Positions 1 through 3,000 of a DNA stretch of 5,201 nucleotides are shown here, in pieces (position 1 is the stretch's first letter; the number at the start of each line of letters is the position of its first letter). This stretch comes from a plasmid, in sequence record NZ_KM577619.1, one strand, 5' to 3'. The position numbers are program-made.

Positions 1-3000
1 AATGATTGCACTGTATAAATAACCAGGTGTAGCATGTATGGAAAAGCACTTTATCAATGAAAAGTTTTCACGAGATCAATTTACGGGGAATAGAGTTAAA
101 AATATTGCCTTTTCAAATTGTGATTTTTCAGGGGTTGATTTAACTGATACTGAATTTGTTGATTGTAGTTTTTACGACAGGAATAGCTTGGAAGGGTGTG
201 ATTTTAATAGAGCCAAACTAAAAAACGCTAGCTTTAAAAGCTGCGATTTATCAATGAGTAATTTTAAAAACATTAGCGCCTTAGGTCTTGAAATTAGTGA
301 GTGTTTAGCTCAAGGAGCTGATTTTCGAGGGGCTAATTTTATGAATATGATAACTACAAGGTCATGGTTTTGTAGTGCTTATATAACCAAGACAAATCTT
401 AGTTACGCTAATTTTTCTAGAGTCATATTAGAAAAGTGCGAACTGTGGGAAAATCGCTGGAATGGCACTGTGATAACTGGCGCCGTGTTTCGTGGCTCCG
501 ATCTTTCTTGTGGGGAGTTTTCATCGTTTGATTGGTCTTTGGCTGATTTTACTGGTTGTGATTTAACGGGTGGGGCGCTTGGCGAGCTTGATGCAAGGCG
601 AATTAATTTAGATGGAGTGAAGTTGGATGGAGAGCAGGCGCTTCAGCTTGTTGAGAGTTTAGGTGTTATTGTTCACCGATAAAATCTAGGTAAAAAACGC
701 CTAATGCCCCAATGTGGTACAATCAAAACGGAGCGAAGCGACATCTTCATCTTGTCTTTGCTTTTCTCCATGATCAGTTATTGGGTCATGGTCTCTTAGC
801 TCGTTAATCTGGCTAAGTTTGGTTAGGTTGGGCTTCTTTCGACACTTCGCAATCCAAGAAATCCCTAGTCCGTTGATTGGTGCTCTTATCAGGTACGCAC
901 TGTAATCTTTCGATACCGCAGCGTGATTCGGAGGTAGAGCCGGAATTTCGTTTTCCGGTACGTTTTACTACCACAATTTGCCTGTTTATCCTTTCGGAGA
1001 CCGGGCTAAGTCCGAGTCAATCAAGTGGTGCATTTGGGTTAATGTCGTTGGCTGGTATTTAATGAGAACGTGACAAGCGCCTCTCACGTTGCTAAGATTG
1101 GATTGCGACGTCTAATCTGAGCAACGAATGCACAAGATTTAGAGTACCAGAGCCCTGTGATGCTGTCACGGGGCTTTGTTACATCTGGAGCTTGGTAAAC
1201 CTCATAAATTCAATTCGCAACGCTCGCCGCAAGGCGTGAACTTGTTTCACGTCGAGGAAGCGGAATTTCTCGAAAGCCTTATACTGTCTCCGTTCACACA
1301 TGATCGGAGGGTGTCTCTATGTCTCAATTATTTCGTTTGGCATCGCCAGAAGATTACGAATACATCGAAGAATTAAATTTATGGGAATTGTCATTTGATA
1401 AGCGACCGGTTCAAGGGGTTCGTTGTGAAGATCCGGTGATCGGGGCAGAAAAATATAATCAAGGGCGTGAAAAATTTAAGGCGTTAGCGTCACGGCATAA
1501 AAAACACTGGAAACCGAACGGATTGACCTTTTCGGAGTTGATCCGCTGGGCAATAGAATGCGGAACTCCAGAACAATGTCAGCTTGTTTTAGCGTTATAC
1601 CATTGCACAAACGATGATGATTATCAGGCGATGGGAATTCAGTTAAGCCGAAGTATTGATAATGCAAATGTCAGTCCGATCATCTTTTTCACAGGTAAAA
1701 ATCAACGGTTATTAGGTGATATTTCGATGCTAAAACAGCTCGAAGAAAAGGTGCGCTGACGTTAGGTTTACCTATTATTTTATGTATTATCCTATCTATT
1801 ATTCTATCTCTTATTTTATCTATTTCGTCTGTAATAGGTAGAATAATACATAGAATAAGATACAGAATAATAGATAGACACAAGATGACGTTGTGTTATT
1901 TCTTACCCATTAATCCACCTGTTATTCTACCTATTACTTTACCCGTTATTGCACCCAATTTAGGTATAACGGGCAGAATAACGGGTGAAATAATGGGTAG
2001 AATCATAGTTTTACTAACTTGCACCCCATGATACTTTCAGTATCAATGCCACTCATTTTCTGGACGAAAATGAATGACATAAGGCTCCGCCCTCTGGCTA
2101 TTTTCTTCGGCTGGACGCCTGCGAAAAAAACCATTCACCCAAGCCCGTCAAACTCACTGCGTTCGTCTGACCACCCCCTTTTTTCGCCCCTGTATTTGGT
2201 CGCTCAAAAATGTGGTGGTCAGACGCTTCGCTTGACGGGGGGCTTTGCCCCCAAAACGAAACACGTTCACTGGGGTTCACTTGCCATCGCTGGGGCGTGT
2301 CATTTCGTTTCGGCTCCCCCTGTTTTTCCCTTTCTTCGCTGGACGCTCATCAGGATAAAAACAAAAAGCCTACCGCCCTCGTTTTACTCGGTTGGTCAAA
2401 TCGCTTCTTGCCACAAAACAAGTTTGTGACTTTCAGCGATTTCGCATCGTTTTACTTGTCAGTTTGCACGATGTTAAAAACGCACTCAGAAGCCCGCAAA
2501 ACCGTTCTAAACTTTCAGCGTAGATTTGGGTGTTTTATAGGGTGATCGTGTCTTAAAATCGTTTCGAGGGGCTTTAATGGGGATGAACGGGAGGTTTTTG
2601 CTAACTAACTCGCCCGTTTAACATAAAAGGGATTAGAGTAACCCATTTTACCGTTTAAATCGCTCAGGCTTTTTCCATGTGAAATCTTTTGCGTGTCGTT
2701 CTAACTTTCTTTGTTTTTGTGCCTTATCTGCGATTCTTTGGCTCCAGATTTGTTTATATACCGTGGCTAGCAAGGTTTTCCGTTGGTCTTTATTTAACGG
2801 TTTACCGTTTTGCCTTTCATATTCATCAAAAGCCTGCCGCATAAACGTTTTTTCTTTTCGGGTTAAGTTTTTAATCTTTCTCATGGTGATTTTATATCCA
2901 AAACTCAAATTTTGAGCAAAAAAGTGCCTAATACCTCAATGTGGTACTAATCAAAACGGAGCGAAGCGACATCATCAATTTGTCTTTGCTTTTCTCCATG

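Follow-up and report, generated by a model that had tools for sequence, protein, structure and literature searches.

What the palindromes built onto the Xer-like sites of a small antibiotic resistance plasmid are for, and whether they make those sites substrates for recombination as single strands, is the question raised by sequence record NZ_KM577619.1. The window (the whole stretch analysed, 5201 nt) is a complete small circular plasmid of the Col3M type that bears qnrD1. A plasmid of Serratia marcescens, pSm3qnr (5204 bp), is 98.5% identical to the window over its full length, and a 5202-bp plasmid of Proteus terrae is 99.8% identical over 96% of it; both are typed as Col3M and non-mobilizable. 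A first-pass annotation had found a hairpin palindrome on the XerD arm of each of three Xer-like sites (A, B, and C) and had suggested movement of the intervening modules as single-stranded DNA (ssDNA). Our comparative analysis indicates that the three are very probably members of the psi family of Xer sites, with stem-loops on their XerD sides, and that host XerC and XerD probably recombine them.

Each site is 28 bp long in a consensus scan and comprises an 11-bp XerC arm, a 6-bp central region, and a XerD arm (TTATGTTAAAC) that is invariant in all three (Table 1). Against the dif-arm consensus the XerC and XerD arms of site B match at 9/11 and 10/11 positions, and those of sites A and C at 6/11 and 10/11. 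The core of site B is identical to the psi core of pSC101 (GGTGCGCGCAAGATCCATTATGTTAAAC) at 25 of 28 positions (hand count), and the two have in common the 6-bp format of the central region, the same XerD arm, the hairpin, and the XerD-side flank. Sites A and C differ from psi in their poor XerC arms and their central region, TCCCTT.

The palindromes at sites B and C read as originally described: GTTAAACGGGCG (4552-4563) and CGCCCGTTAGAC (4581-4592) are separated by 17 nt at the former, and GTTAAACGC (5107-5115) and GCGTTTAAC (5133-5141), again 17 nt apart, form the latter, where a repeat finder lengthens the arms to 15 nt (5105-5119 and 5129-5143; repeat I16). The palindrome at site A is also present, but lies one base from the position first given (ACGGGAG at 2587-2593 and CTCGCCCGT at 2609-2617), and its stem contains a mismatch or bulge. 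All three adjoin or overlap the outer end of the XerD arm. Two further details of the first description needed revision. Loops of 17, 17, and 15 nt had been called conserved, yet these lengths are a product of the arm cut-off; with all pairs formed the loops are 8 (B), 10 (A), and 3 nt (C), and A and B are merely homologous. The second arm had been said to recreate a GTTRRAC half-site, as it does at B (GTTAGAC) and, as an inverted copy, at C, but not at A (GTTCATC). Across the family, only G5-C45 (33/36 sequences) and T7-R43 (36/36) are kept of the outer extension into the XerD arm.

Folding with DNA parameters on both strands, compared with 200 dinucleotide shuffles, gave -11.9 and -11.3 kcal/mol for hairpin B (z = -3.5 and -3.1) and -11.6 and -13.5 kcal/mol for hairpin C (z = -6.2 and -8.5). 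Hairpin A is weak (-6.1 and -5.2 kcal/mol, z about -2.1; 6 and 11 of the 200 shuffles were as stable), being marginal because one stem position is mutated; the intact allele in pSm3qnr (GGGCG...CGCCC) gives -10.6 kcal/mol (z = -4.1). As the first-pass annotation had held, such a hairpin is not a feature of ordinary dif: the flank of Escherichia coli K-12 dif folds to just -1.2 kcal/mol. Nor is a XerD-adjacent hairpin found at the five cer-like sites scored from six loci fetched (ColE1, two further ColRNAI-type plasmids, and two other small plasmids), where folds range from -1.4 to -4.2 kcal/mol.

Sites of the family were collected without conditioning on their flanks, by scanning for exact copies of the central region joined to the XerD arm (in a single genome of each species and in metagenome contigs) and from related plasmids, to give a set of 54 non-redundant real sites; the 47 nt running outward from the outer end of the XerD arm were folded, as was the mirror segment on the XerC side. 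The XerD-side segments have a median fold of -9.4 kcal/mol, their XerC-side counterparts one of -1.4 kcal/mol (paired Wilcoxon p = 2e-10), and -7 kcal/mol or better is reached by 37/54 XerD-side segments and by 0/54 XerC-side segments. For nine chance matches, which come from unrelated phyla, the median is -4.8 kcal/mol. The palindrome is thus a specific XerD-side property of a family of Xer-type sites, missing from E. coli dif and cer-type sites, and not a product of chance. Absence from other copies had been named as an observation that would refute the first-pass proposal, and for the most part it is not seen: most sites below the -7 kcal/mol threshold keep a weakened version.

At this position at least three hairpin classes are found that are unrelated in sequence. 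Classes I and II (GGGCG...CGCCC) are homologues with different loops; class III is AAACGC-ACA...TGT-GCGTTT, lengthened in the window to ATGTTAAACGC/GCGTTTAACAT; and class IV, in p3M-2B, is GGATGAGTT/AACTCATCC. When classes I and II are aligned, pairing holds in 92.9% of cells and the stem columns are 90-100% conserved, with more variation in the loop columns. Compensatory changes affect two pairs, one in a Providencia chromosome (GGACG/CGTCC; L021) and one in an Acinetobacter contig (T-A; L032), and perfect 12-bp arms (GTTAAACGGGCG/CGCCCGTTTAAC) are present in L004 and L039; the arms at site C, of 11-15 nt, contain ATGTTAAAC. The asymmetry between the XerD and XerC sides, the unrelated classes, and the compensatory changes together point to selection for the XerD-side hairpin.

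Some of the same data could be read as showing a hairpin without any Xer-linked role, classes I and II having been inherited along with the XerD-side block that follows them and the others being ordinary gene-end hairpins at module ends. The stem of classes I and II is kept mainly through sequence identity, its covariation is modest (two pairs, three cells; equalled by 6/500 shuffles), and stems have decayed in a few members, among them the commonest qnrD plasmid (2683 bp), site A of the window, L046, and L050. The class III hairpin, moreover, overlaps the 3' end of a 65-aa open reading frame (ORF) annotated in pRS12-78 (L002, 2381-2578), and the same ORF end can be read in L026, L032, and L033. 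We nevertheless regard this explanation as decidedly unlikely, given that unrelated strong hairpins (z of -5 to -8) start 0-1 nt from the XerD arm in independent lineages while the XerC side offers none in 54, and given the compensatory changes and the contrast of conserved stem with variable loop columns.

Several members of the collection have peculiarities of their own. Four metagenome contigs with a GACCCA site (L042, L045, L051, and L057) combine a class I loop (AGTTAGCGAA) with a class II distal flank (GTTAGACGCGCTCAG), which suggests a recombination breakpoint inside the stem-loop. Contigs of 0.5-2.8 kb in assemblies labelled with the unrelated genera Acinetobacter, Massilia, Fulvimonas, and Enterorhabdus (L011, L016, L020, and L025) carry the Xer site and the class I hairpin flank of the 2683-bp qnrD plasmid, which reflects either a very broad host range or contamination of the assemblies. 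The contig L032 has, at 1049-1110, a degenerate site (AGTGCGACTAA / TCCACG / TTATGTAAAAA) followed by GCCAGCAATTTGCTGGCTTTTT, and its hairpin is the sole XerD-side case observed that scores as a canonical terminator (d = +17).

A search of a plasmid collection showed that psi itself has the hairpin. In pSC101-type plasmids the core is followed by GGGCGAGTTTACATCTCAAAACCGCCCGCTTAAC, a hairpin homologous to hairpin B, and the homology with site B covers the hairpin and about 100 nt of XerD-side flank, some 70 nt of it past the hairpin; it is interrupted about 105 nt from the XerD arm by what we take to be an IS903/IS102 terminal repeat, an IS5-family transposase being annotated just beyond. The standard psi fragment, presumably of ~360 bp (pSDC133, 3046 bp, minus the 2686 bp of pUC18), would be long enough to have always included the hairpin. 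In the psi literature consulted, psi is described as recombining in supercoiled duplex DNA, from direct repeats, while PepA and ArcA occupy the XerC side; the sequences named there as required are the core and the accessory region on the XerC side, and the hairpin is not mentioned. No description of a XerD-adjacent stem-loop at these Xer sites, psi included, was found in the searchable literature, and as far as that literature shows, the conserved stem-loop abutting the XerD arm is apparently undescribed.

On the accessory side, where a psi-type site has some 160-200 bp bound by ArcA and PepA beside its XerC arm, the flank of pSC101 has no similarity to that of site B, and the two align only from the XerC arm onward. 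Nearly every site of the family has a XerC-side flank of its own. Since psi accessory sequences are poorly conserved (psi literature), this dissimilarity does not show them to be absent. A further difference is that psi occurs once per plasmid, whereas the window has three sites, in both orientations, at module junctions. The cer sites of the ColE1 family are likewise Xer sites of small plasmids with a gene converging on the XerD side, but have an 8-bp central region and a conserved accessory region on the XerC side.

The proposal that the sites are recombined as folded single strands, and that the modules move as ssDNA, draws on real likenesses: in CTX-phi attP(+) and integron attC, too, an inverted repeat able to form a hairpin lies in the setting of a tyrosine recombinase; GTTAGAC and GTTAAAC look, superficially, like the attC core GTTRRRY; both strands of the window are predicted to form stable hairpins; and some relatives encode MOBQ relaxases and therefore have a single-stranded stage in transfer. 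In CTX-phi attP(+) and attC, however, the fold itself makes the duplex that the recombinase binds. When 141 nt around each of A, B, and C were folded on both strands, only the flank hairpin formed consistently; it lies outside the core, pairs just the outer 3-9 nt of the XerD arm, and leaves the inner XerD arm, the central region, and the XerC arm unpaired, so that in none of the three folds are inverted half-sites paired into XerC/XerD duplex arms as in CTX-phi attP(+). The palindrome is joined to a complete Xer core, and its arms lack the RYYYAAC...GTTRRRY form of attC (an imperfect R''-L''/L'-R' palindrome, recombined by IntI, that contains extrahelical bases): site B begins with GTTAAAC. 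A forked shape is given at site B by an extra 6-bp helix between GCGCGT of the XerC arm and ACGCGC just past the hairpin, but this pairing is not conserved, because elsewhere this XerD-side flank adjoins XerC arms of unrelated sequence.

Stem mismatches point the same way, with no bias between G.T and A.C that would betray strand-specific folding (9 vs 17 cells in the core helix). No recombinase, relaxase, rolling-circle Rep, replication-initiator, or phage domain was detected in the five annotated coding sequences (CDSs) other than qnrD or in two ORFs across a frameshifted region; annotation and domain search revealed no IntI or other integrase gene in the window, and the window holds no filamentous-phage genome. 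The lack of a recombinase, relaxase, or Rep domain in the annotated non-qnrD ORFs means that recombination must be host-encoded. With the core left unpaired, no ssDNA functions in these ORFs, no strand bias, and the same hairpin at psi, a site described as recombining in duplex, supercoil-dependent form, the analogy with CTX-phi and attC is unsupported, and we consider movement as ssDNA very improbable.

How the plasmid was put together is apparent from comparison with the common 2683-bp qnrD plasmids, which have one site (GATTCATACAA / TCCCTT / TTATGTTAAAC) with a class I hairpin. The XerC arm of that single site is the one at site C, and its XerD side and hairpin are those of site A: the XerC side of C is identical to it, and A is a hybrid junction whose XerD side is identical to it and whose XerC side comes from the insert. 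The window aligns to the 2683-bp plasmid over 1-2650 and 5134-5201, with identity breaking within the shared central region and XerD arm, and thus amounts to the 2683-bp plasmid with an added 2518-bp segment between hybrid sites in direct repeat, the product expected of site-specific fusion of two circles. Sequence comparison places the crossover inside the core, each junction taking one arm from each parental site, and L002, L003, L004, and L006 have the same pattern. Independent inserts occur at the same point: pRS12-78 has a ParA-family gene there, p3M-2B has a RelA/SpoT-domain gene, and pHBRJC9-qnrD1 and pswupm2.1 have others. In p3M-2B two TCCCTT sites lie exactly 2683 bp apart, matching the published DR-C1 and DR-C2. 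No free 2.5-kb donor circle matching the insert was found in PLSDB.

Site orientations alternate along the window (A and C on the minus strand, B on the plus strand), and site B, whose central region is also not that of the other two, divides the insert into two modules. The A-B module is bounded by XerC arms and is swapped for other cargo between equivalent sites in pHBRJC9-qnrD1 and pPM14-2. The B-C module, bounded by inverted XerD arms, recurs with exactly these bounds and 98-99% identity in pHBRJC9-qnrD1, pPM14-2, and pW18-2-c (L004 2097-2672, L075 1779-2354, and L074 2514-3088), and so both in Col3M plasmids with and without qnrD and in a Moellerella plasmid. Plasmid pW18-2-c (L074, Moellerella) encodes a replication initiator and is typed as MOBQ-mobilizable, marking it as a different replicon; its outer XerC arms and one central region also differ. 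Because the B-C module is bounded exactly by XerD arms everywhere it was found, it behaves as a discrete mobile module. Across the family one XerD arm is combined with 40 different XerC arms and four central regions (19 with TCCCTT, 21 with GACCCA).

Very probably, host XerC and XerD, acting on duplex DNA, have fused plasmid segments and exchanged them at the site junctions. Each junction has the layout variable XerC-side cargo, XerC arm, 6-bp central region, invariant XerD arm, and stem-loop, with a conserved block of ~150 bp after it in classes I and II.

In kind, such a system is known, and the Xer-bounded modules that build qnrD plasmids are a new instance of it. Like the dif modules of Acinetobacter, they are Xer-bounded segments in alternating orientation, with both XerC-bounded and XerD-bounded modules present, the same module in different replicons, highly variable XerC arms, and no dedicated recombinase encoded. 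They differ in their hosts, which are Morganellaceae and other Enterobacterales; in their plasmids, which are tiny and of Col3M or pSC101-like type instead of having Rep_3/OrfX backbones; in cores that resemble psi instead of pdif; and in the stem-loop against nearly every XerD arm (in a scan of psi-family sites). Four Xer-like sites within 5.7 kb (2270-7926) of a 169-kb contig of Moellerella wisconsensis ATCC 35017 (L033) may form another Xer-module array, on a chromosome or a large replicon; one interval encodes a lipase-like alpha/beta hydrolase and a Tli4 immunity protein, which look like a type VI effector-immunity pair, and another is the small XerD-bounded module.

Earlier models of qnrD plasmids dealt with the same plasmids and the same insertion point, and neither mentions Xer. 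The insertion was taken as part of a transposon-like 'mic' element in one (PMC3913671), and the mosaic was ascribed to homologous recombination at DR-C repeats in the other (PMC7409132), where DR-C, 35-115 bp upstream of qnrD, covers site C. No literature pairing qnrD with Xer or pdif was found.

If the hairpin is not the recombination substrate, its place may offer a clue to its function: it stands where ORFs from both sides converge on the site. The longest ORF within 1 kb aims at the site in 35/38 distinct contexts on the XerD side and in 27/37 on the XerC side, and consensus scanning found no other terminator-like element between these genes and the sites within the window. Transcription entering a cer-type site from the XerCD side has been argued to displace XerCD (PMC2831885). 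The hairpin may be a structural insulator, either a weak stop for transcription of a non-canonical kind or a structure at RNA 3' ends, and would then shield the XerCD-bound core from transcription arriving on the D side; the TTT in the complementary strand of the XerD arm (GTTTAACAT) would serve as a short U-tract after the stem. Use of the XerD-arm complement as U-tract would account for the strict adjacency of stem and XerD arm and for the lack of anything comparable on the XerC side. XerC-side ORFs often stop 2-9 nt short of the XerC arm, a cassette-like packing that recalls the genes abutting attC in integrons.

We put the insulator forward tentatively, as a possibility that falls short of being probable; joined with Xer recombination at module junctions it makes the best explanation of the locus as a whole, one we hold at somewhat below even confidence. 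Much weighs against it. The hairpins are not called by a consensus terminator scan and score -24 to -63 on a d'Aubenton-Carafa-type scale, compared with +17 and +38 for two control terminators; they depart from the form of an intrinsic terminator (G+C-rich stem, short loop, U-rich tail), with loops of 8-10 nt, a conserved bulged A, and a tail of only TTTAACAT (4 T in 8). Hairpin C lies between divergent genes, with no gene pointing at it in the window, and at ColE1-type cer sites, which have no hairpin, a XerD-side gene converges as well. The palindrome partly enters the XerD arm, at the two pairs kept across the family, which an RNA role does not need, and the most abundant plasmid (2683 bp) has the weakened allele. 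Some of the observations of ORF direction are also not independent, since the XerD-side ORFs concerned overlap the homologous block.

Entry of the palindrome into the XerD arm fits an effect on XerD at the level of DNA better than a role in RNA. As an extruded cruciform, a hairpin in ssDNA at the replication fork, or an inverted pseudo half-site for XerD, the structure could alter XerD binding or catalysis or block a translocase arriving from the XerD side, and so tune the direction of resolution, fusion, and module exchange. Such an effect would also suit the stem that strictly adjoins or overlaps the outer XerD arm in unrelated classes with no counterpart on the XerC side, the perfect arms of L004 and L039 and the long ones of site C, the retention of G5-C45 and T7-R43, the poor terminator scores, the placement of hairpins just inside both terminal XerD arms of the B-C module, and the lack of strand bias in mismatch types, as expected of a duplex palindrome. 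Imperfect palindromes with 8-10-nt spacers and a bulge extrude poorly, however, the distal arm lacks the inner TTAT of the XerD site, and the commonest allele is the weakened one; in the psi literature consulted, too, the sequences named as required are the core and the XerC-side accessory sequences. Somewhat unlikely when taken by itself, an effect on XerD at the DNA level is nearly as likely as the insulator.

More specifically, the stem-loop might be a functional, structure-specific part of psi-family sites that switches XerD action. It would occlude or duplicate the XerD arm in supercoiled or transiently single-stranded DNA, and would thereby permit the intermolecular fusions and module swaps that the topological filter of PepA and ArcA should forbid. 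We judge this version to be unlikely.

A palindrome may also be the binding site of a dimeric protein, either from the host or the product of a small module-borne ORF, serving as accessory factor or to set directionality. The palindrome is two-fold symmetric, its half-sites lying about two turns of the helix from each other, which would fit such a protein, as would the loop length and bulged A conserved within classes I and II; the modules also carry small ORFs (65 and 86 aa) that are uncharacterised. Yet classes I/II, III, and IV share no sequence, so that no single sequence-specific protein fits and such a binder is unlikely at sequence-unrelated hairpins in the same position, although one that recognises structure would be compatible. 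With a hairpin but neither small ORF in the 2683-bp plasmid, and no DNA-binding domain detected in the 65- and 86-aa ORFs, we find a dedicated binding protein improbable.

The hairpins of A and B are followed by a conserved block (Table 1). The repeat finder links the two blocks as inverted repeat I1 (127 nt, 71% complementary); the homology of A and B, which are inverted relative to each other, spans about 160 nt (repeats I1 and I7), and the flank of site C is unrelated in sequence. Window positions 2385-2636 are 96% identical to a Citrobacter MOBQ Col3M plasmid (L010), and the block of site B is kept in Col3M plasmids and metagenome contigs. The block (about 155 nt) terminates in ATGTTAAAAAC, an inverted near-copy of the XerD arm (2472-2482 on the plus strand and 4692-4702 on the minus strand) that is invariant in 18 diverse aligned sequences; CTTAAAATCG and CCGTTCTAAACTTTCAG are other strongly conserved motifs. 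A structured small RNA formed by block and hairpin was considered and rejected: with RNAalifold, 18 diverse sequences of the bottom strand formed nothing beyond the terminal hairpin and some weak helices (covariation term -0.43). A promoter has been predicted within the block (PMC3913671); a consensus scan of the block makes no promoter call, and the conserved CTTAAAATCG has a good -10-like hexamer and no -35. An oriT or relaxase nick site was also considered and set aside, there being no likeness seen to the MOBQ nick sequences known to us and no relaxase encoded in the window.

Table 1. Positions of sites, hairpins, modules, and other features in the 5201-nt window of NZ_KM577619.1.
Feature	Position	Strand	Description
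qnrD1	38-682		
146-aa ORF	1319-1759		AT-rich iteron-like palindromic repeats directly after
G+C-richer stretch	2019-2545		
Conserved XerD-side block, site A	2472-2586	+	starts with ATGTTAAAAAC
Hairpin A	2587-2617		class I, weakened allele; ACGGGAG / 15 nt / CTCGCCCGT
Site A	2616-2643	-	XerD arm 2616-2626; central region TCCCTT 2627-2632; XerC arm GGTTACTCTAA 2633-2643
A-B module	2644-4530		bounded by XerC arms; 86-aa ORF, Sel1-repeat gene, split copy of the qnrD-downstream non-coding element
Site B	4531-4558	+	XerC arm GATGCGCGTAA 4531-4541; central region GACCCA 4542-4547; XerD arm TTATGTTAAAC 4548-4558
Hairpin B	4556-4588		class II; AACGGGCG-A-GTTT / 8-nt loop / AAAC-CGCCCGTT; begins in last 3 nt of XerD arm; wider arms 4552-4592
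B-C module	4559-5134		576 bp, bounded by inverted XerD arms; hairpin B, conserved block, 65-aa ORF (minus strand), hairpin C
Conserved XerD-side block, site B	4589-4702	+	inverted copy of 2472-2586; ends TTTTTAACA(A)T, an inverted XerD-arm near-copy
65-aa ORF	4763-4960		
Hairpin C	5105-5143		class III; ATGTTAAACGC...GCGTTTAACAT, inner ACAAG/CTTGT stem; takes in 9 nt of XerD arm
Site C	5135-5162	-	XerD arm 5135-5145; central region TCCCTT 5146-5151; XerC arm GATTCATACAA 5152-5162; position of the DR-C repeat of PMC7409132

Other features of the window touch on replication, gene content, and the control of qnrD. Dense AT-rich direct and inverted repeats at 1766-2017, iteron-like and with 12- and 24-nt spacing, follow the 146-aa ORF and are a plausible candidate for the replication origin of a plasmid type without a recognised Rep protein. 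The adjoining G+C-richer stretch contains two overlapping ORFs in different frames where a single 147-aa CDS is annotated in pSm3qnr (L005, 2031-2474), reflecting either a frameshift difference or non-coding DNA. Pfam and NCBIfam domain searches with the small ORFs reached no family's curated cut-off. An Rfam search of the whole window (E <= 1) returned only two sub-threshold matches, neither usable: mir-4875 in the AT-rich repeats and COG2827 RNA at 4549-4629 on the minus strand (E = 0.58). Upstream of qnrD, between site C and the start codon, a LexA-box-like sequence (CTGTATAAATAACCAG) is present at 11-26; qnrD is reported to be SOS-regulated.

A non-coding element of ~500 nt downstream of qnrD (692-1199) has a second copy, 85-96% identical, at 2919-3035 and 4146-4508, interrupted by a 1.1-kb insertion in which the Sel1-repeat gene lies. 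A motif, GCCTAATGCCCCnATGTGrTAC, is present near 699, 2925, and 4079, is adjoined by a Tn3-type inverted repeat in the 210-kb plasmid p15758B_210 (L065), and may be the 'mic' boundary of the literature. Entry of the 2.7-kb plasmid into p15758B_210 through Xer was considered and rejected: the copy there is bounded by the Tn3-type inverted repeat at this other motif, and its Xer site is intact inside.

For the biology of these plasmids, the sequence evidence points to host Xer recombination at psi-like sites, instead of 'mic' elements or homologous recombination, as the source of the qnrD-plasmid mosaic. The qnrD plasmids are widespread carriers of low-level quinolone resistance, and Xer-driven gene shuffling would on this evidence reach Morganellaceae and other Enterobacterales, with qnrD1, ParA, and RelA/SpoT-domain genes as plasmid cargo and a likely Tle/Tli4 effector-immunity pair in one possible array on the 169-kb Moellerella contig. 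We know of no established mechanism for the movement of elements of the dif-module type; if the stem-loop does switch XerD action, it would provide one, together with a function for a part of psi that goes unmentioned in the psi literature consulted. A conserved stem-loop on the XerD arm, present also at the long-used psi site of pSC101, offers a testable handle on how these sites are regulated or how they escape a filter that allows resolution only.

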